A stretch of 63,182 nt of DNA, the filler included, from Rozella allomycis CSF55 (taxonomy: Eukaryota), in NCBI GenBank assembly GCA_000442015.1. It is 15 parts of 15 records of this genome, joined end to end, with 100 filler letters (N's around TTAATTAATTAA, not from the genome) between each part and the next. Parts side by side here need not be neighbours in the genome. Positions count along the whole stretch, not along the records: positions 33,459 to 38,949 come from KE560746.1; 14 more parts are not named here. One strand, given 5' to 3'. Shown piece after piece: positions 7,101-53,400 of this stretch. The notes under the pieces were generated by a model that saw nothing but the letters and a program-made list of their open reading frames with translations, was not told the DNA's origin and did not search any database. Every line of letters begins with the position of its first letter. Position 1 is the first letter of the stretch. Position numbers and translations under genes: made by a program.

Positions 7101-10100
7101 AAGGGACATTGAGAGCCAAAACGAATATTAATCATCATATTAGAAGATCAGATAGCTTGAATAATAAATTTTATGGTAAAAGTGTAAAAGTTGGCGAATA
7201 TTTCATCGAAGAGAACTTTGTGACTGAGATCGAAGAGAAATTAGAATCATTTGTTGAAAAGCGTGTAAAAGATGAAATTAAACCATTTCCTTTTAATAGT
7301 GAAAATAAAAATGCAATAATGATTGACATTTATAAAGATTTGGAAAAAAGTTGGCTGGAAAATGAAAAGCGAGAACGTCTTAGTTCCATTCAAAGAGGTG
7401 AATTACTTGAATATCTAGAAAGTGTTTATGCCGCAGTTCAGAGTAGAAAAGAAGAAATTGAACGATACATTTATGACAGCATTGAAAAAGTTCCAAGTGA
7501 AGAAAGTGCCATGATGAATTGCTTCAAAACTATTAACCTTGCTGCGTCGGCCAAAATAACTGATATTTATAGGCTTGTTATTGACAAATCTCATCTCAAA
7601 TTAATGAATCCTTACCTTTGTAATGAAAGTGTTGACAGAATTCAGAAATGTTCCATTCAATTTTTAAAACTATGTGTGCTTTGCGATAAAATAGAGAGGA
7701 TTCAGAACGGTTTATCTGATAATTTATCAAATTCAATTTTAGCTAAAGATTTATTGTGTAAAAGGATTTGGAATGCGGAGTGTAACCCTAGGTGGCTGGT
7801 TTTTGAGGCCGAAAATGAAATGCAAATACGACCTATTCAATATCTTTTTGCACAATTTTTAATAGAAAATCCATTTTCCATTTGTCAGTTAAACATGGGT
7901 TGTGGAAAGACCAGGGTTGTTTTGCCAATGTTGATTATGCATTATGTTGAAAATAATAAAGTCCCGTGTGTATATGTTATGAATTCACTGTTAAGAGAAA
8001 ACATTGAATATCTGCATTTAACTCTGACGGCAAGCAGCCAGAATATTCAAGTCCTTGAGCATCCTTTTAGCCGCCAAGTTGAAATGACTGAAGATGATAT
8101 TTCTATATTTATGGATTATTTGTCTACCCCAAATGCTTGTTTAATATCTTGTCCTGAATACAGAATGTCGTTAATGTTAAAACCACATGAATTGAAGTTA
8201 AAAGGACAATGTCAGATGATGACGAAATTACAAGAATATATAAGAATGAATAAATTTGTAGAAATCTTCGATGAAAGCGATGCGCTTTTGTCCCATATTT
8301 ACCAATTAATTTATACGGTTGGCACCCAAACTGAATTGACAAAGTTTTTTGAAAGATCAGTAATAATTCAAGCGACCCTTCAGATATTAAACTCTAGTCA
8401 ACGTATTCATGATTATTTATCAGAGAATAAATTATTAAATTTTGAAAAGACAAAATTCGATGGTGAGTTATACAAGATAAGATTCCCTGTTGAACTGATG
8501 GCAGAAGGATTGACCGAAAGAGAAACTTGGATCAAAATATGTGAAATGATATTTTATGAATTAGTAGGAGGGGTTTTTGAAAATCTTGAGTGGATTAGCG
8601 TCGTGTTCAAACAGAGCAACAAAAACTTTAAACGAATGTTCAAGGAAGCTGTTTTCAATTTAAATTTTGATCCTTCGAAATTTCTAAGAAAAATTAATGA
8701 TGAATTTAAGGAATCCCATGTGTTAATGTTGCGCGGGTTATTCGCGCATGAAATTTTGTTATTTATTCTTAAAAGGAGATATCAAGTAGAATATGGAATA
8801 GATGTTAAACGAAGCAAAAGAATGGCTGTTCCGTATAAGGCTGCTGACATTCCCACCGAAAAATCAGAATTCAGTCATCCTGATGTTTGTCTAGGTTTAA
8901 CAATTTTGTCGTATTACCATAATGGATTAAATAAAGAACAATTGAGACAAGCGTTTAGATTACTTTTATCATTTGGATCAGTCAGACAAGAGAAACTCTA
9001 TAATGCATGGTATGATTCAATAAAAGCTAATCTTGATCAAAATGAGATAGAAATGATAGATAAAGTGAATAAAATTGACCCAACATCAAGAAGATGTTTT
9101 ACATAAGAGGTTTGGGAAATGTATTAAAGTAATTAACTTTTGGCTGAACTATATAATTTTCCCAATAGATACTATTCAATATCCTCAAAGAATAGCTGCT
9201 TCAGCATGGACTTTGACAAGTGGTGACCATTGCATTGGGTTCAGTGGTACTAATGATACTAGCAAGTTATTGCCCTCAAATGTGGTTCAACGTCAACCAA
9301 ATATCCAAGAATTGATATCAACCAATGGACTAATGCTGAATTGTATATTAAATCACTCAAAGTATTACTCTTTTAATATTGTTAATTTGACTTGGAAGGA
9401 GATAGTAAATTTTTGCCTAGAAAAACAGTCAAATGCATTAATTGATACAGGATCATTATTAGCAGGAAAGTCAAACAAAGAACTAGCGGAATACATTCTT
9501 TTACAAAATTCATTTATTAACTCTGACTTTAAAGGGATATGTTATTTTGACGTTAATTTTGGCACCAATGGTCAGTGGATGGTTATTGAGAAAGGCACAA
9601 ATAAAATAAATACTTTGGTTGACTCTCATATACATGAAAAGGATACATTTGTTATTTTTGATGACGCAAGATCTAGAGGTGCTGACATGAAGTTAAAAGA
9701 CGATGCCACTGCAGTCATTACATTAGGCCCGAAAATTACTAAAGATAAATTTATGCAAGGGGCGGGAAGAATGAGAAAACTGTTAGATAATCAAAGACTG
9801 ATTATTATTTCTTCATTTGAGGTTAATGTATCAATCAAAAAGGCGATAAGTAGTCTGAATCATGTGCCTACAATAAATGATGTCATACAGTGGATTCTGC
9901 TTAATACTGAAAAGACTGTCATGGAAGGATTACAAATGTGGACAAGTCAAGGTTTACAGTATGCAAAACAAATGAAAAATCCAGATTCAATAGTTTGTAA
10001 TGAAAGGATCAACTTAACTGACCTTTATGGATTGAAGCATTTTGACCGCTCTTTAATGGATGAATACTTGCCTATTGCTGACAATTTGCCAAACACCAAA

Positions 10101-16160: not shown

Positions 16161-17221
16161 AAATGAATTCGGAAGCAACTGTGACTGGCGCAGCAAGACG
16201 AGATATAATAATGCGCCAATTGTGTAAAAACTAGTATAAATAAAGAGTTTTTTATCGAATTGAATTTGTTTATTCATAACTTTCAGATTTTACAGTTATA
16301 ATACTTGAAATTCTTAGCCCTAAACCTGACCCTGAACCTTATTCAAAAAAGTGGATTTTTTGAAAAATGCTTANTGAAAAATACTTATTTAGGCATAATT
16401 ATTAAAAATATGTTGAAACTAGACGTTTTTATTCATGTGATTCATGAATTTCGTAAAAACATNCGTAAAAGCATCAGAAAATTTTTCCAAGTTTTCGTTG
16501 AGTTTAAACATTGTTTTGTTTGTTTCTTGCAACATTGAACTATATTCCGTGTCCTCTCTTTTGCTGTCCGCGTTGGCTAAAGCTACAAGACCATCTTTCA
16601 AAGATTCACCCATGTTCACAATAGCTTGTGAAAGATTAACTTTTTCCTTTTTGCGGTCCAATGAGGGGGTAGCTATTAATGGAGGTTCACTGGTGGGTCC
16701 AAAGGCATATGATGATTGCGATGCCATTTCATACAAATCGTATCCTGCTTGTCCAAGATCCGATGCTCCTAATCCATCCCTGCCTTCAAAGTATTGCACC
16801 ATAATATTCCACAAAGGTGGTTCAGGTCCAATGCTTCGATTTCCTGTTTTTGCCAATTCAGCTTTGTGTTTTTGATACGACGACTTTGCACTTTGCTGCA
16901 CCGAATTTGTTTTTCATTTGCTTGACGGTTACAGAGGAATAAAATGATTTGTTAAATTCTTCCAATATATTATTCCACGTTTTTTGAACCTTTTTGCGAT
17001 CTTTACTGTCTAAAAACTCATCGCAATATTTCTCCAATCGTAAATGCAAAAGAAGTTCAAGTTGTTCATCAGTCCATATATGATTTTTGGTTTGGGGGTG
17101 TCACTTTCATATTCATCACCTGAACGAACTCTTTTCACCATAAAAATAACAAGGGATAACTTTGAAGAAAATTTTATTTACAGGGGTAGATTTCACAATT
17201 TGCGACTTCTCAGTTGAAGTA
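16161..17221. mobile_element. Degenerate PIF/Harbinger element: nuclease C-terminus (+) convergent with a frameshifted Myb/SANT-like gene (-)
   Basis: Plus strand ...GAARRDIIMRQLCKN*; minus strand IWTDEQLELLLHLR...WNNILEEFN...VKQMKNKF...LAKTGN, broken by frameshifts near 17090 and 16900. Confidence 0.7.
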
Positions 17222-20369: not shown

Positions 20370-21510
20370 ATGGAACAGTTATATCCATATCAAGCCATAT
20401 TAACCAACACGCATGACCAAATCCAGACATGCACCGATAAAGTATGACATTGTTTCAACCTTTAAATAGCTTGGTATCGCTGTTGGACAACTGGTACATG
20501 CACTTGAAGGATATGACGACGTCTTAAAGATATCATCTCACGAACAAGTAACGTGAAACATATTTTTGCATCAGAACTGCCAGTTTATCACTGACGAAAA
20601 AATGTCAAGTGTTTTATACTGGGTTTCCAAGAGGATGGAACCGACTGTCGAGCATTATCTTGCTAAACTTGATCAATACATTAATGATCTAAAGGAAGAA
20701 TACGATGAACTGAGTGAAAAAGTAACATGAACTGGATTACGCAATAAGGAAAAGGCTCGATCCGTTGCATCGAAGCTTGATCATGCCAAGGACATGGAAA
20801 CAAAACAACACGAATATGATAGAATACATGCCATTCGGTTACATAAAGAAGAAGAACTTAAAAGACTTGATGAACAATTATATTCGATGGTACTTTTATA
20901 ACTAGATTTACGATTAGAATGAATACATGAAAACAGATTTCGAAACAGTTGAAGATGAAGAAATTAATGATTTAAAATTTGAATTGGAAGAAATCAAACT
21001 TCTAATTTCACAACTTAAAGAAGAATCTGTGATATCTGATTCGCATGAAAATTGTAACTAAATATTCTACCATATTATAGCCATCTATGATGATCTTCAA
21101 AAGGAAATAAAAAATAGAATTGGATGGTCAATTGAAAATATTGATACATTTAGCAACTATTTTAATGGAGATCTTGAATCATTAAATGAAATTAATCTTC
21201 AAGATGATAATTTCATAGAGAATTGTGTAAACCAAGTAAATTCATAAAATTCTAAAAATTGTTAAACCAGATGACGTCACAAGATACCATTGAATTAAAT
21301 GAGACCATTTCGAAAATTCAATTGTTATCAAATGTACTTTTTGAAGAAGAATATGCCATTCGAATAATTTCAATTCTGAAAAATTATTTCGGAATTTCTC
21401 CAGTAAAGTCTATTTTTTGTAAAGATTCTAAGATCACAAACTTTGACATGAACAGTCAAGAATGCATTGATTGCATTAATTATTTAAAAGATAAGAATAT
21501 TATAAATTGA
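20370..21510 (+). CDS. Spliced coiled-coil protein; N-terminal half weakly resembles DASH subunit Spc19
   Basis: Exons joined by short introns; segment MEPTVEHYLAKLDQYINDLKEEYDELSEK. Confidence 0.5.
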
Positions 21511-33458: not shown

Positions 33459-36400
33459 TGAAAAGTCGAATATAATTGAAAAGTCAAATGTTTTAGTAAA
33501 TGAAAAGTCAAATATTCTGGAAAAGTCGAATGTTCTGGTGATTGGAAAAAGCGGAAAATCATTATACGTCCAGTCAACCTTCAAAAACGTGGCAACAGTG
33601 TACTGCAGCCGCCAAACAAGCTGGCTGGACCTTGTGCGAGAGATCAAGAGCCACGGCATGCTAGTCTCTTGTACGCGCGGCAAGCAATTCAAGCCCAAGA
33701 AGAACCCATTGACGTTGTATGTGAAGAATGTGCACGAGGTATTGATGGATGCGTACGAGTCTAGTACTGTGTATAGTTTTGTGTATGGATTGATTAACAA
33801 TAATGGGTTTTATGATGAGAATGGCGAGTGGATTGCGTGTGAGGTGGGTGTTGTGTTGGGGAGTGAGAGGGCGATTCAGTGTGAGAGGCTGGGTGGGTGG
33901 TTGGATGTTGTTGTGGTTGGGGAGATGAGGGATGAGGAGGTTGGTGGTTTTATTAGGGATTGGTTGATGAGAGGCGTTAAAGACGTTGATAATATTGGAG
34001 ATGAGGGTGTGGAGAAGATTGTTGGGAAGATTATGCAGGTTTATTTGGGGTGCAAGTGTGGAATGAAAACATTGAATAAAATATTAAAGAGGCTTGTAGG
34101 TAGAATAAAGAGGGAAATGAGTTTTGATGAGATTATTGTTTGTGTGTATAATCTGTGTGAAAGGTTTATTGGGGATTCAGACGTTGCAAAGTCTAGAGAG
34201 ATCAAGAGAATATTTAGCAAGAGGGAAGAGATGAAGAGTGTTAGAGAATTGAATTTTGAAAAGTTGATGATAGACAATATGATAATAGTTGGCGAGAACA
34301 ACAGTGGCCGAAGAAGCCTCCTGAACGACCTTCAAATAGAAATATTCGAGTTGAATGAAACATTAAACTATCAATTCAAGCAATTCTCTAATCAAATAAA
34401 GAATATTCTTAATTGTAGGGGAGAAAAGATGGTTGTTGTGTATGATTACCAGATTAACGATTGGATATTGAATTGTGTGCATTTGTTTGTGAGTAGTTTG
34501 GATGTAAAGTATTTGATGAATGACGATGATTTGAAGCAGGTTGATGGTGAGAGGCTGGTGAAGAATGAGCTGTATTTTGTGTTTGTGGTGAAAAGTGTTG
34601 GAGTGTTTGAAGGGTATCCAGGGATTTTGAATGAAATGAGAGTTGTTGAATTTGAAGGAGTAAAGGATGTTAAAGATATCAGTGTTGTTAGTGAAGGGAG
34701 TGAAGGAAGAGAAGGGAGTGAAGAAAGTGATAGAATAAGTGAGAGTGTTATTCAGAGTAAATATTATTAGTGCTTCTATGTTTAGGGTTTAACAATTGCA
34801 AGTCATTTAAGAATTCATTTGATTTGTGGGTTGGATATAAACTATTCTTGAAAATAAAGAATAGAGAAATGGATAAAATAAAAAAAGAATTAGAAAGATA
34901 TGAAAATGGATTAAAAACAATAAAGAATGCGAATAAAGTAGTTAATGATCTAAGCAGAGAAGCAGAAGAACAAGAAAAGGAACTAATAATCAAACAAACA
35001 GAAGCAGATGAATCCTTAAAACTAATTACCTTTAAAATGAACGATTCATTAAACAAGCAAAAGATAATCCAAGAGTTAGTTTCAACATTGAACAAGGAAG
35101 AAGAGGATTTGAAGAAGAGGAGAATTGAAATTGAGAATGAGTTGATGCAAGTTGAGCCAGCTATTAGTAAAGCGAAAGAAGCGATTGGAAAAATTAAGAA
35201 TGAGAATTTGAGTGAAATTAGATCACTGAGATCGCCGCCTAGTTTGATTAGGGATTTGTTGGAAGGGGTTTTGATGTTGATGGGTATTTATGATACTTCG
35301 TGGACTTCAATGAAATCATTTCTAGGTAAAATGAATTGAGGGGATTAAATTAGGTAATTCAAGTGTTCAGGTTTTAATTAGGTAATTGATTTAGTTAAAC
35401 TCTCAAAGGTAAAAAGACGGTCAAGGATGAAATAATAAATTTCGATGCTAGGAACATCAACAAAGAAACAAGAAAATCTATAGAAAAATTAATTCAAGAA
35501 AAGAGTGAAGCATTCGACCCCATAAACATTAAACGATCATTCGTAGCTGCCGAGCCCCTAGTATTATGGCTCAAAGCGCAATTGCAATACTCGATCGTCA
35601 TTGAAAAAATAAAACCATTAGAAGGTGATTTAAACATGCTGAACAATTCACTGAATAAATCGAGAGGCGAGATTGAAGAAAAGGAGAGTGAATTGAAAAG
35701 ACTGGAGGCCGAGTTGGAAGAGTTGAGGGTTGATTTTAGTAGAAAGACTAGTCAGACGGAGAGTTTGAAGATAAAGTTGGGGGTTGGGAGGGAGAGGATT
35801 GAAAAGGCTAGCATGCTGTTGAGCAAGTTGAGGGATGAGCAGGAGAGGTGGAGTGTTGTTGTTGGGGAGTTGGAGGGGAGAGTTGGGGTGTTGGATGAGT
35901 TTGTATTTAAGCGAGTTGAATTAATCATCAAAGGGGAAGTGGGAGAAGAAGTAGAAGGAGTGGAAGGGGAAGAAAGTGTTGACATTGTAGAAGGAGTTGA
36001 AGTAGAAGGTGAAGTTGACAATCACAATATTGATACCCTTTCAGCAAGTAATAATCCAGTGGATGTGGCATTGATGAGATTGAATGAAACTATTTTGGTA
36101 AGTTTGATTAGAGATCCATTAGATATTTGCATTGATTATTTAAAAGATTATCAAATTATAAATTACAATGATTCTTCACTGTTGAGACAATTAGAATTAG
36201 CCATGAAATTGGGAAATAGAATAGCTATTAGGAATATGAATGAAATACCAAGTTATTTGGGTTATTTGATTTCTAATATTTCTAAAACAGATGAGATTAA
36301 ATTGTTGGATAAAGAAATCAAAATTTCTTCAGGTAGAATAGATCTATTGTGGCATAGTTAATAGGTACCTCAGATCTATAATCTAAACAAGGGTTTAAAT

Positions 36401-38949
36401 TGGTTTTAATTACAAAAAATAAAGAAATAAAATCATGTGAATCTATTTTGGATTGTTTAACGATAATTGATTTTAATTTAACGAGAAGAGTGTTGAGTAA
36501 TAAATTTCTAGATTTGATTGTGAATAAAATGAATCCAGAAAATCAATTGAAAAAAGAAGAAATAAATTTGAAGCAAAAAGAATTGAATTTCAAGTTGATA
36601 GAATTGGAAGATGAATTATTGAAGCAATTGTCAGAAACAAATGATCTTCTTTCAAATGAGCCACTTTTACTTTCACTTGAAGAGATTAAAATTCAGTCTT
36701 TGAATATCAAGAAAATATTGAATGAGAATTTGATTTTGCTAAAGAATCTTCAAAACCAGTTTATCCAATTTAAAGAAATTACAGACTTTGCAAGTAGATT
36801 TTATTTTGCTTGTGAGAAACTGAAATCATTCAATTCAAACTATTTTGTTTCTGTGAAGCAATTTGAGTTTGTATTGTTGGAAATTATTTCTGTTGTTGAT
36901 TCTAACTTTTTCAAAAGAGAATTTGTTAAATCTGTTTTTAGTATTCTGGCTAGGTTTGTTGTTGAAAGAGATCAATTAGCTGTGTATTTGTTTATTGTTA
37001 AAGAAATGTATGAGCAGGTTGTTAATCAAGATGAATGGGATTATCTCAAAGGTAAGCGAGTTGGAAATGTTTTGTGAAAGGGAATGTAAAGAAAAGTAAA
37101 TCTTATGGCACTGCTGATGGTAATTCAAATGGTAAAGTGAGTAATTCAACTATTACTTTATCAAATTCATTCTTTGAAAAGTATAAAGTAGAATTGAATT
37201 CATTGGCTAATTGTAAATTCTATTCAAAATTAAACTTTAATGATCCACTAAAATGGATTGAATGGTTAAAATCTTCAAATCTAATCTCAAACTTTCCATT
37301 TCCAAATTTAACGTAAATCACATTATAAAACCTTAAGAGATATTTCCAGAAACTACTTTTAATTAAAATATTCAAACCAGAATTATTCACAAATTATTTA
37401 AAGTCATTTATTTTGAATCTTGTTGGATTAAATAGTCTTCCTTGCTTTGATCTCAACTTGAATTCTATTTATAAAAATGGCTTGCCCATTCTTTGTTTTA
37501 CTTTTCCTGGTTCTGATCCATTTTCTCACATTAATTCTATTCCTAATCCAAATCCACCAATTATAGTAACGTTTCATTTTTGTTTTAATCTAGGTACCTC
37601 ATCTATTTTTTTACTAATCTAGGTACCTCATTTAGTAAATTTCTGATCTAGATCTCGCCAAAAATTTCTAAAAATAATCTATTCAAGATTCTTACAAAAG
37701 CAGTGAATGACAATAGTATTGTTTTGATTGAAAATATTCAATTTGTTGAATTCCAAGATGAAATAGTTTCATTCCATCAAAACAATCCATTATTAACTTT
37801 ATTCATGANATCTGGTTTCTGATTATTGCATTAAAGTTTCCTTTGAATCTACTTTTAACATTAAATTAAATTGTAAAAGATTACTCAATGGTAATTCACT
37901 TTAAACTATTCCAATAGATTACATTGATGCTAAAGAGTTGAATTTGAATAGATGTTTCAAAGTTGCATGGCTTCATTCTATTTTAATAGCTAGAAAATCA
38001 ATTATTCCAATTGGCTTCCTCAAAGATTATGAATTCAGCGATACAGACTTTAAAATAGCCATCAAAATAGCGTCAACTACAAATGAAACCAGTTTATTCA
38101 AAAGTTTACTAATATCGTCTGCTTATGGTCCTAAAATTGATAATAAAATAGATCTTGAAAAATTAGTTATTCTAGTCAACAGTATCTTCAATGCTAAAGA
38201 TTTCAAACTGGATGGGCTAAAAGCTTCGTCTGATGTGAATGTTTCAAGTATTACAGGTATTCTGCAGTGGTTGGATAATGCTGCAGTTGATGACTTTGAA
38301 GCAATGTGTTTGCCAGCGAATACACTTGTCATGAAATCTCTGTTGGATTTAGACTACACTTTGAAACTTTTGCGATCAGTAAATGAATTTAAATGTTTTG
38401 TTTCTGATTAGTTTTAAATCTGTGGTTGGTAGTAGCGATGGGTTGAAGAGTCAATGGCTGGAAATCAAGAGTCAGTTGGCCAAGTTTAGAAATAATGAGA
38501 CGAGAAGAAGCAGTGAAGGAGATGAAGCCTTTGTGGTAGAGTTTTGTGAATTGGAGTGCCAGTTTGGATGGGATTTGGTCGAGTTTGTTGACAAGCAGAT
38601 GGAGAATTTGCATTCTTTGCATGATGAAACTCCTGACAGGTAACACACAGTAACATAAATTAATTCTTAGGTAAATATAGCCCAATGAATTAAGGTAGCT
38701 GGCTATTATTCTGGGAAGGTCCATCGTCAATCTCTGACTACTTTAACAGCATCTACCAGAACATTTCGCATCAATACACTCTCCCAACCACCTCAAAGGA
38801 TCCAGTCACCTTGGAATTCATGTTTAATCCAGANAATTCATGTTCAATCCAGATTCATTCATCGCTGCAGCCTCACTCCTCACCTCCATCGACTCGCCAG
38901 TCGCATGTCTCTCATTCCAACCAACGCCAAACGCTATTCACATATCATC
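33459..38949 (+). CDS. DYNC2H1: Cytoplasmic dynein-2 (retrograde IFT) heavy chain, AAA3 to C-terminal region, highly divergent
   Basis: [10 protein letters not shown]; stalk/[99 protein letters not shown]. Confidence 0.92.
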
Positions 38950-50413: not shown

Positions 50414-53400
50414 ATGGCCTACACGTCGAAAAACAAGCGAGGATTATTGGAGGACATGGTACTTTTGTCACGGATAAATGAATCTGAAATCAATGATAAC
50501 TTGAAGAAAAGATATGACGATGATCTAATATACGTAACCCAGCCGTTGTTTAATTACAGACATATATTGGCCCAGTTTTAATTGCCGTTAATCCGTTTAA
50601 AAAATTGAGTTACTTTACAGATAAAGAGATTGAATTGTATCAAGGTTCTGCTATGCATGAGAATCCACCACACATATATGCGATTGCTGACGCAATGTTT
50701 CGAAACATGCTGATTGATGAAGAAAATCAGTGTGTCATAATATCGGGTGAAAGTGGGGCTGGAAAAACAGAGAGTGCGAAATTGGTGATGAATTACATAT
50801 CCGCCGTTTCTGGGAAAGGAGGAGAAGCAGTCGAAAGGATAAAATATATTATTCTTGAAAGCAATCCGTTGCTTGAATCGTTTGGAAATGCAAAAACACT
50901 GAGAAACAACAATTCTAGTAGATTTGTAATTTGAGATTATTCGTTAAATAGGGGAAATATTTTGAGATTCTTTTCAATCGTGGAGGGATGCCTGTTGGAG
51001 GAAACATTTCAAATTTTTTGTTGGAAAAGGTGAATTTCGAATTATTTTTTAATCTAGTCACGTGTTGTTGGATTAAAGCAAGGGGAAAGAAATTTTCATA
51101 TTTTCTATCAAATGACAAAAGGCGCTAATAAATTTGAAAAGGAGAACTATGGAATGACAAATCCTGATTATTTTAATTATCTGCGTCAGAGTGGAACATA
51201 TGATGCGGATGGGATTGACGACGTTGCGGATTATCAGGAAGTTAAAGTATGGACAATATATTTATGCAATGTATTTAGAAGGCGATGGATATTTGTGGTT
51301 TTTCTAAAGAAGAGATTAGTTGTATTTTTGAGCTGGTTGCTGGTATATTGCATTTAGGAAACATTGATTTTATTGAACAAGGAAATGGAGCAGTGGTTAG
51401 AGATCCTGACAGTATGATTGTTGTGTATGATTTATAGCACTTAGCTTCCCATCATATTTGCTTGGGATTAAAGAAAATGAATTGTCAAAAAAGTTGCTTA
51501 GTAGAATAATGAACTCTGGCAGCAAAAGAGGAAGTACGTATGATGTTCCAATGAATGTTCAACAAGTAAAAACGTTGATTATTCTTGAAAGGCTACAAGT
51601 GCAAGAGATGCATTAGCAAAGGCTTTGTATTCTCGGCTATTTGATTGGCTTGTGAAGGCAGTTAATAGAGCAATGACAAGGAAAGAAAAATCACAAACTG
51701 TAAATCTTGGAGTTTTGGACATTTACGGATTTGAAATTTTTGAGCAGAATGGTTTTGAACAATTTTGTATAAATTATGTGAATGAGAAGCTGCAGCAAAT
51801 ATTTATTGAATTGACATTAAAATCTGAGCAAGAAGAATATGTAAAGGAAGGCATTAAATGGACTCCAATTGAATTTTTCAATAACAAAATTGTTGTTGAT
51901 TTGATAGAGGGAAAAGTAAGAATATTTTTTGTTGATTTTAGCGCCCTGTTGGAATCATGGGAGTGTTGGATGACATTTGCGCGACAACTCATGCGATTAC
52001 TGAGGGATCAGATGTGAAATTTGTACAAAAAATGACAGATGTTGTTGGCAGTAATCCACACTTTCAAGGCATGTCCACTCATTTTATGATTAAACACTAT
52101 GCTGGGAACGTTACTTATGAATCTGAAGGGTTTTCTGAATCAAACAGAGATAGTTTGTTTAAAGATTTGGTATTGCTAGTTCAAACAACATCAAAGTAAA
52201 CTACAATTATTTATCATTCAACAGAAATTTTATTAGAGATTTGTTTCCAGAGGACATTAATGAAGATTCCAAGAAACGACCAACAACATTCTCGTTTAAA
52301 ATAAGAAACCAAGCCAATGAGTTGGTAAAGGAACTAACAAAATGCAAACCTCATTATATTCGCTGCATAAAACCAAACGAAACGAAAAGACCCAGAGATT
52401 GGGATTCAAAAAGGTAATAAACAAATTAAAGATGGACAAGGGTTGATCATCAAGTTCGATATCTAAATTTAAAAGAAAATATAAGGATTAGAAGAGCTGG
52501 GTATGCGTATAGAGAAACATTTGAGAAATTTCTGAAAAGGTAAATAAACTTTGTATTCAAAAACAATAGATATGCTATTTTAACTAGAGAAACATTTCCG
52601 TGTTGGAATGGAAGTGTAAATGATGGCATAAATCATATTATGAATTCAGTAAAAATGGAAAATGATCAATTTCAAATTGGCTTGACTAAAATATTTATAA
52701 AGAATCCCGAATGTGTAACAATTTAATTTTGAATTTATGAATAGTTGTTTCTGTTGGAAGAAACTAGAGAGCGCAAGTACAACGCCTATGCGAAAATAAT
52801 TCAACGAGCATTCAGAAAATACAAAATGAGAAAATATTTTCTTGAATTAAAAAAGAAATGTAAACAATTAATCTCTCTTTTTAAATAGCATATGATATTG
52901 TTTATGGCAAGAAAGAAAGACGACGATTTACTTTAAACAGAGAGTTTGATGGCGATTATCTTCACATTCCAGAAAACCCGATAATAAAACAATTGATTGG
53001 GAAACAAAATGTTTTGTTTGCTGACAAAATAATAAAATACGATAGAAGGTTTCGACCACAAGAAAGGGAATTGGTGGTGACGAATGAAGAGATCTTCATC
53101 ATTGGCATAGAAAAAGTAAAAAGTGGACCTTCAAAAGGAACTTTTACTAAAATTGTAAAGAGAGAAATCCCAATCAAAACTGTTACGCAGATAATCACAA
53201 GGTAATCATCAAATATTACTTTAATCAGTTCAAAATGCGACGATTTCATTGTTTTACAAGTTTTTAATGACTATGATACTCTGTTTGAAAATGTTTGTAA
53301 AGTTGAACTCTTATCAGTTCTCAGCCAGCTTTACTTCAATTTAACCAGCAAGCCACTACCCTTGTCATTCAGAGATTCGTAAAATCATTTTCTTGCTTAA

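Follow-up and report, generated by a model that had tools for sequence, protein, structure and literature searches.

Two abutting minimal introns in the dynein-2 heavy-chain gene of Rozella allomycis, probably relayed through a zero-length exon

A stretch of 59 nt that interrupts the cytoplasmic dynein-2 heavy-chain gene of Rozella allomycis CSF55 (positions 36333–36391 of the window, by which we mean the whole 63,182 nt of DNA analysed here) is best read, as we see it, as an intron that is removed in two steps through a zero-nucleotide AG/GT junction, and we consider this reading of the sequence fairly probable. The 59 nt would be non-coding and would comprise two complete spliceosomal mini-introns with zero exon bases between them, leaving in two ordinary reactions. 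Judged from the sequence, the two minimal introns are probably relayed via the zero-length exon, and they form part of a pattern that runs across the dynein gene. The features of the stack and of its surroundings are as follows:

33460–38949, + strand: contig carrying the 3' part of the cytoplasmic dynein-2 heavy-chain gene (Pfam domains, homologue search)
35409–36332, + strand: upstream exon, encoding the end of the stalk and the first half of AAA5 and ending in CAG (gene finder, Pfam)
36333–36364, + strand: unit 1, 32 nt, with a GTAG donor and a TAG acceptor (atypical G at +4; upper edge of the length range)
36365–36391, + strand: unit 2, 27 nt, with a GTAC donor and an AAG acceptor (intron scoring)
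36363–36366, + strand: internal AG/GT junction, AG then GT with a zero-nucleotide exon (sequence, two-unit scan)
36340–36347, + strand: shared 8-mer AGATCTAT in unit 1 at offset 8, within a 12-nt palindrome (36337–36348)
36372–36379, + strand: shared 8-mer AGATCTAT in unit 2 at offset 8 (unit comparison)
36392–37051, + strand: downstream exon, encoding the second half of AAA5 and starting with GG (gene finder, Pfam)

The first-pass annotation had described two abutting units of 32 + 27 nt with a shared 8-mer, and its coordinates, lengths, terminal dinucleotides and the AGATCTAT motif are all as it gave them. Removal of both units produces the open frame that it had proposed, and removal of unit 1 alone or of unit 2 alone leaves in-frame stops. 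At 36363–36366 the acceptor AG directly abuts the donor GT, which is the sequence arrangement of zero-nucleotide recursive splicing (for a general definition see PMC13149111). The Pfam AAA_9 match of the upstream exon stops at profile position 114, and that of the downstream exon picks up at 117. When the 59-mer was shuffled, a two-unit GTA...AG parse (25–32 nt) was obtained in 0.7% of 100,000 base shuffles and in 2.7% of 20,000 dinucleotide shuffles, a rarity that is modest for this stack taken alone. There were no look-alikes of the 59-mer in the index of scanned DNA, and the single match to an 18-letter junction pattern in a scan of viral contigs was taken as chance.

The contig has Pfam matches to MT, AAA_9 and AAA_lid_11, and the best solved relatives of its protein are dynein-2 structures (E = 5e-89, compared with 8e-48 for dynein-1). 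The Rozella protein is very divergent (about 30–35% identity to its best homologues). One exon is 100% identical to the NCBI protein P0001 of R. allomycis CSF55; P0001 differs from the window at six of the 791 residues compared, so it represents another assembly or haplotype. The P0001 model is without most of the AAA6 region (window 37220–37930), including a three-unit stack at 37566–37651, and ends at a further stack starting at 38640. The gene with the stacks is a flagellar motor gene, and Rozella is a fungal parasite. Strongly G-skewed, GA-rich coding stretches with short repeats lie at 35770–36020 and 33800–34060, and an E/G/V-rich encoded segment takes the place of conserved sequence after the dynein stalk. 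The window itself is a chain of short contigs with N spacers between them, and single Ns with duplicated flanks occur at 37809, 17637, 23768, 24507, 41644, 43613, 54483 and 60860; these are artefacts of scaffolding by which exons are broken or duplicated, and one of them lies within the dynein gene. Elsewhere, the frames of a DUF3638/DUF3645 gene of 2,700 residues overlap at 9069–9106, which points to a frameshift, from an assembly error or a lesion, more than to an intron.

As a background for the two units we applied a simple spliced gene finder to 24 regions of the window and kept introns of 24–34 nt; after removal of three of them (two GTT calls that were doubtful and a duplicate due to assembly) and addition of one by hand, the set comprised 56 single introns. 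These are 25–32 nt long (49 of them 26–29 nt), begin with GTA in 55 cases and GTG in one, and end in TAG (34), AAG (13), CAG (5) or GAG (4), with no branch-point motif standing out among the 56. Rozella introns are almost all about 28 bases. The single-intron statistic is partly circular because the gene finder penalised GTT and lengths outside 24–34 nt, and as a check we took the myosin I, Rpt1 and TLDc genes, in which 15 of 23 introns have no alternative in-frame GT/GC donor (18–45 nt); 14 of these 15 unambiguous introns start with GTA and one with GTG. Introns of R. allomycis have been described as ~30 nt long and without conserved donor or branch-point motifs (PMC6349667), and for Rozella PMC8476143 gives only intron density. 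Scored against the 56 single introns, unit 1 falls at the 2nd percentile and unit 2 at the 5th; they are the lowest scorers among the ten stack units of the gene, and their scores are equalled by 12% and 7% of exonic decoys. The GTAG donor of unit 1 is found in none of the 56, and is as rare there as the GTT donor of a rival reading considered below; for unit 2, the GTAC donor is found in 3 of 56 and the AAG acceptor in 13 of 56.

There are four long introns in the dynein gene, each of which parses into 27–32-nt GTA...AG units, the stack at 36333–36391 being the weakest and least clean of them. The other three are:

35326–35408, + strand: sister stack of 28 + 28 + 27 nt (gene finder, shuffles)
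37566–37651, + strand: sister stack of 28 + 29 + 29 nt, with a clear 29-nt tandem repeat at 86% identity (repeat analysis)
38640–38698, + strand: sister stack of 31 + 28 nt (two-unit scan, shuffles)

Parse rates for these three were 0.02%, 0 of 100,000 and 0.5% by base shuffling, and 0.02%, 0.01% and 4% by dinucleotide shuffling. A two-unit scan of the whole window returned 13 matches, seven of which lie within the 5.5-kb dynein gene, where six are true junctions and the seventh is an alternative parse; the six matches outside the gene include none established as a stack, and the one at 52540 was set aside as an exon plus a single intron by the gene finder. The same 8-nt palindrome occurs at three of the six internal junctions (36363–36370, 37592–37599 and 37621–37628), and as it is palindromic these three junctions read AG then GT on both strands. 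The stack at 35326–35408 shares its codon and phase with an intron in two distant metagenomic dynein-2 loci, L013 (64) and L016 (866–941), and from this common position it follows that at least this stack grew at an old site. In two further loci, L015 and L017, introns lie upstream of this position by a few codons.

Five apparent longer introns of the window that are not stacks each begin with GTAA and have an in-frame TG end at 26–29 nt, so that they can be listed as probable GT-TG introns:

38379–38406, + strand: 28-nt intron of the dynein gene, probably GT-TG; the first in-frame AG comes at 70 nt (homologues)
21236–21261, + strand: probable GT-TG intron (in-frame TG end)
29888–29860, − strand: probable GT-TG intron (in-frame TG end)
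18983–18956, − strand: probable GT-TG intron (in-frame TG end)
18859–18832, − strand: probable GT-TG intron (in-frame TG end)

The AG alternatives at these sites are 35–70 nt away or absent, two of the five being without an in-frame AG within 74 nt; 21236 and 29888 also permit AG introns, of 35 and 41 nt. At 38379, 28 of 50 homologues favour the TG reading and nine the 70-nt AG reading, with 13 ties. The chance of an in-frame TG end is about 0.14 per site, and the five sites were chosen after the fact; a sixth candidate, at 16932 in a transposon-like frame, is ambiguous. TG ends at 26–29 nt are consistent with what would be expected if distance outranks AG, i.e. if intron recognition follows a length ruler.

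From these arrangements we infer a length ruler, removal in two steps and the order of those steps. The Rozella spliceosome would work at a near-fixed donor-to-acceptor distance of 25–32 nt, and given such a distance the 59 nt would be removed in two reactions; either unit may go first, and whichever does, a GTA...AG intron of normal size remains for the second step. Removal in two steps is supported by the observation that every long intron of the dynein gene keeps an internal AG followed by GTA at the modal spacing, which suggests that the cell cuts longer introns out piecewise. A stricter version, which we put forward tentatively as a possibility, is that the spliceosome measures a fixed span of ~25–32 nt so strictly that a TG end is accepted at the right distance and a longer intron never leaves as one piece. 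Intron length would then be quantised: introns would grow only where splice junctions already exist, by whole units that can each be spliced independently, and any long intron would have to be relayed as minimal introns with zero-length exons. The stack at 36333–36391 would be an aged, diverged one whose order of steps may be set by a hairpin.

The hairpin in question was predicted by folding:

36334–36385, + strand: predicted hairpin in which 36334–36345 pair with 36372–36385 (12 bp and a 2-nt bulge)

It is predicted to loop out the internal junction of the stack, which keeps one-step, structure-aided splicing alive. In that rival reading the same mRNA would arise with all 59 nt leaving in a single reaction. 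The internal AG/GT would then be a relic of intron growth, and a modelled hairpin between the copies of the palindromic motif would hide the internal sites and shorten the outer donor-to-acceptor distance, much as stems in Saccharomyces cerevisiae are described to shorten the branch point-to-acceptor distance and mask sites (PMC3239191). The fold of 36333–36391 (−11.8 kcal/mol, z = −2.08, matched by 3 of 200 shuffles) does beat most controls, its energy being reached by five of 1000 random single-intron pairs and by 5% of 56 exact self-duplicates, but the other three stacks fold no better than controls (at 20%, 34% and 25%), one such result at 0.5% among four tests is modest, and the hairpin was rejected as a general feature of stacks. 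The full stem would also bury donor positions +2 to +13 and leave the internal acceptor mostly open (0.74 unpaired), and a stem that buries the outer donor and spares the internal acceptor would suit an effect on delay or ordering as well as it suits bypass. As AGATCTAT is palindromic, its repeat also forms a 12-bp hairpin across the junction, and the simplest view of the hairpin is that it came along when a palindromic motif was repeated. The units of this stack are the weakest of the ten, as if decaying, yet the internal junctions of all four long introns are intact and at the modal spacing, which is easier to explain if those junctions are used, and we regard removal in one reaction as unlikely.

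Which bases leave the mRNA is a separate matter. An enumeration of one or two removals of 24–36 nt each across the stack yields two products with an open frame, the first by the 59-nt removal (reachable in both orders using GTA...AG units only) and the second by a single intron that had been missed by the first-pass annotation:

36357–36391, + strand: rival 35-nt single intron with a GTT donor, giving the translation of P0001 with eight extra residues

In this rival the first 24 nt of unit 1 would code for eight residues of AAA5; one removal suffices to open the frame, and the translation is as in the NCBI model (compared as protein). Scored with an HMM built from the 82 homologue segments that cover the region, out of 149 fetched, the 59-nt product reached 121.9 bits and the 35-nt product 118.4, a margin of only 3.5 bits, and readings of 68 and 92 nt were rejected at only 91.9 and 87.6 bits. 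In pairwise comparisons with the 82 segments the 59-nt product was better in 73, the 35-nt product in four, and five were ties. The spacing from K to F is 8 in 77 of 77 homologues and is retained without a gap by the 59-nt product, whereas the 35-nt product needs an insertion in this segment of invariant length. Gap-free, the 59-nt product agrees with the consensus at −13, −11, −9, −8 and −6, and it is without the conserved G (−10) and D (−5). Its anchor distance of 24 is two residues below the shortest of 76 homologues (range 26–46, mode 28 in 61 of 76), whereas the 32 of the 35-nt product lies within this range, and phmmer aligns the extra residues of the latter to a human ID motif with one gap.

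The rival fares worse as an intron. Although its GTT donor at 36357 is the most accessible donor in the predicted fold (0.88 unpaired), GTT is used by none of the 56 single introns and by none of the 15 unambiguous ones, and at 35 nt the candidate is longer than every single intron and scores under all 56. It would also hold a better GTA donor 27 nt before its acceptor, the use of which shifts the frame unless unit 1 is removed too. Under this reading the in-frame GTA donor farther upstream, the AG inside the stack and the 8-mer at the same offset would all be coincidences. We therefore consider the 35-nt intron improbable. Protein homology and the intron-length background together argue for the compound intron that had been proposed, with both units out, and the 59-nt product is, from the sequence, very probably the one read from the mature mRNA. 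The public dynein-2 model would then probably carry eight spurious residues in AAA5. A comparison with the orthologous intron had been suggested beforehand, and no such intron was found at this site among 17 metagenomic loci (29–56% identity), of which 12 are continuous across the AAA5 segment and four end short of the stack site; L013 has an intron nine codons upstream of the site, in a different phase.

It is very improbable that the stack is an assembly artefact or part of a decaying gene copy in which it is never efficiently spliced, for although the window is made of short contigs and has local duplications where single Ns occur, and the dynein-2 is as divergent as described above, no N lies in or near the stack, its units are not near-identical copies, the same eight residues that the first 24 nt of unit 1 would encode are found in P0001 (another assembly or haplotype), and the flanking exons are long and open.

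The first-pass annotation had further suggested that the units arose by tandem duplication and divergence, and this is only partly supported. The 8-mer lies at the same offset in both, and a shared run as long as this is found at the same offset in three of 1540 single-intron pairs (2.7% at any offset); the global similarity of the units is ordinary (p = 0.71), and their direct local alignment (8 matches, p = 0.15) is shorter than the inverted one (12 matches, p = 0.023). The palindrome in unit 1 is 12 nt long, and the shared motif is consequently an inverted repeat too. Unit 2 resembles the units of the stack at 37566–37651, 1.2 kb away, at least as much as it resembles unit 1: its 8-nt start is common to two of those units (seven of 1540 control pairs), and it occurs four times in the window compared with 0.76 expected, three of these at stack junctions and two of them mutual duplicates. 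The local alignment of unit 2 with the 37566–37651 units has p = 0.012, which is below significance over 45 pairs, and this kinship is suggestive only. Tandem duplication is clear for the 37566–37651 stack (29-nt period, 86%) and plausible for that at 36333–36391, for which inverted duplication or local copying is an alternative. An existing intron may have gained a whole unit, either duplicated in tandem or copied locally, and the units would then have diverged. An intron of an unrelated dynein-2 gene from a metagenome (L013:1140–1210) is flanked by a ~20-nt direct repeat spanning AG/GT, which is the pattern expected of duplication-born introns, and has an internal AG/GT between two copies of a 16-nt repeat.

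Recursive splicing through zero-nucleotide exons has been described in fungi for Cryptococcus neoformans BOT1 (375 nt = 210 + 165; 10.1101/224170) and Schizosaccharomyces pombe SPNCRNA.445 (336 nt; 10.1101/226894). As presented in these sources, the arrangement is like that of the Rozella stack in having an acceptor AG abutting a donor GT inside the intervening sequence, with two reactions giving one exon–exon junction. However, those are isolated cases, in introns several times the genome norm, demonstrated by junction and branch reads, whereas in Rozella the pieces are minimal (27–32 nt), each of the gene's four long introns is built in this way, and the arrangement is known here from sequence.

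The stwintrons of the Pezizomycotina, including the internally symmetrical sister stwintrons of the Hypoxylaceae (PMC8469720), are another comparison. They are likewise fungal, with two U2 intron units, two reactions under intron definition, and a symmetry able to form double-stranded RNA. In a stwintron as described there, the internal intron lies within one of the splicing elements of the external one (donor, branch or acceptor), interrupts it and so fixes the order of removal, whereas the abutting units here have intact ends and both orders give the product; because neither unit interrupts the signals of the other, the stack is not a stwintron. Sister stwintrons have terminal inverted repeats of 45–55 nt, compared with the 12-bp stem with a bulge of 36333–36391, which places the stack outside that class, and they belong to a dispersed family, whereas the Rozella units have shared 8-nt starts that are seen within one gene.

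A model of intron gain by tandem duplication of an AG/GY proto-splice site (PMC2891723) is similar in that a repeated AG/GT junction yields a removable unit of the duplication length, and the upstream exon here ends in CAG. As set out in that source, the model duplicates exon sequence and makes a new intron position, whereas the Rozella unit is intron-like, lies at an existing position and has no exon between it and its neighbour. In size and in GT-AG ends each unit is like the ordinary mini-introns described for R. allomycis (PMC6349667), from which the stack differs in that two are joined head to tail and unit 1 starts with GTAG. No earlier description of such stacks in Rozella was among the matches listed by our search, whose scope excludes most subscription journals and bioRxiv supplements.

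If the units leave one by one, this would be recursive splicing at the opposite size extreme from the known cases, with stepwise removal forced by an upper length limit and not by very long introns, and recursive removal would apparently be the rule rather than the exception in the Rozella dynein-2 gene. The stack at 36333–36391 is the most informative of the four because each of the three readings predicts its own set of junction reads. If the reading is true, the gene would offer a compact natural system for how the spliceosome measures introns and could be used to probe two spliceosomes acting on abutting 30-nt substrates, and it would bear on the birth of whole introns beside old ones in the sister lineage of the microsporidia.
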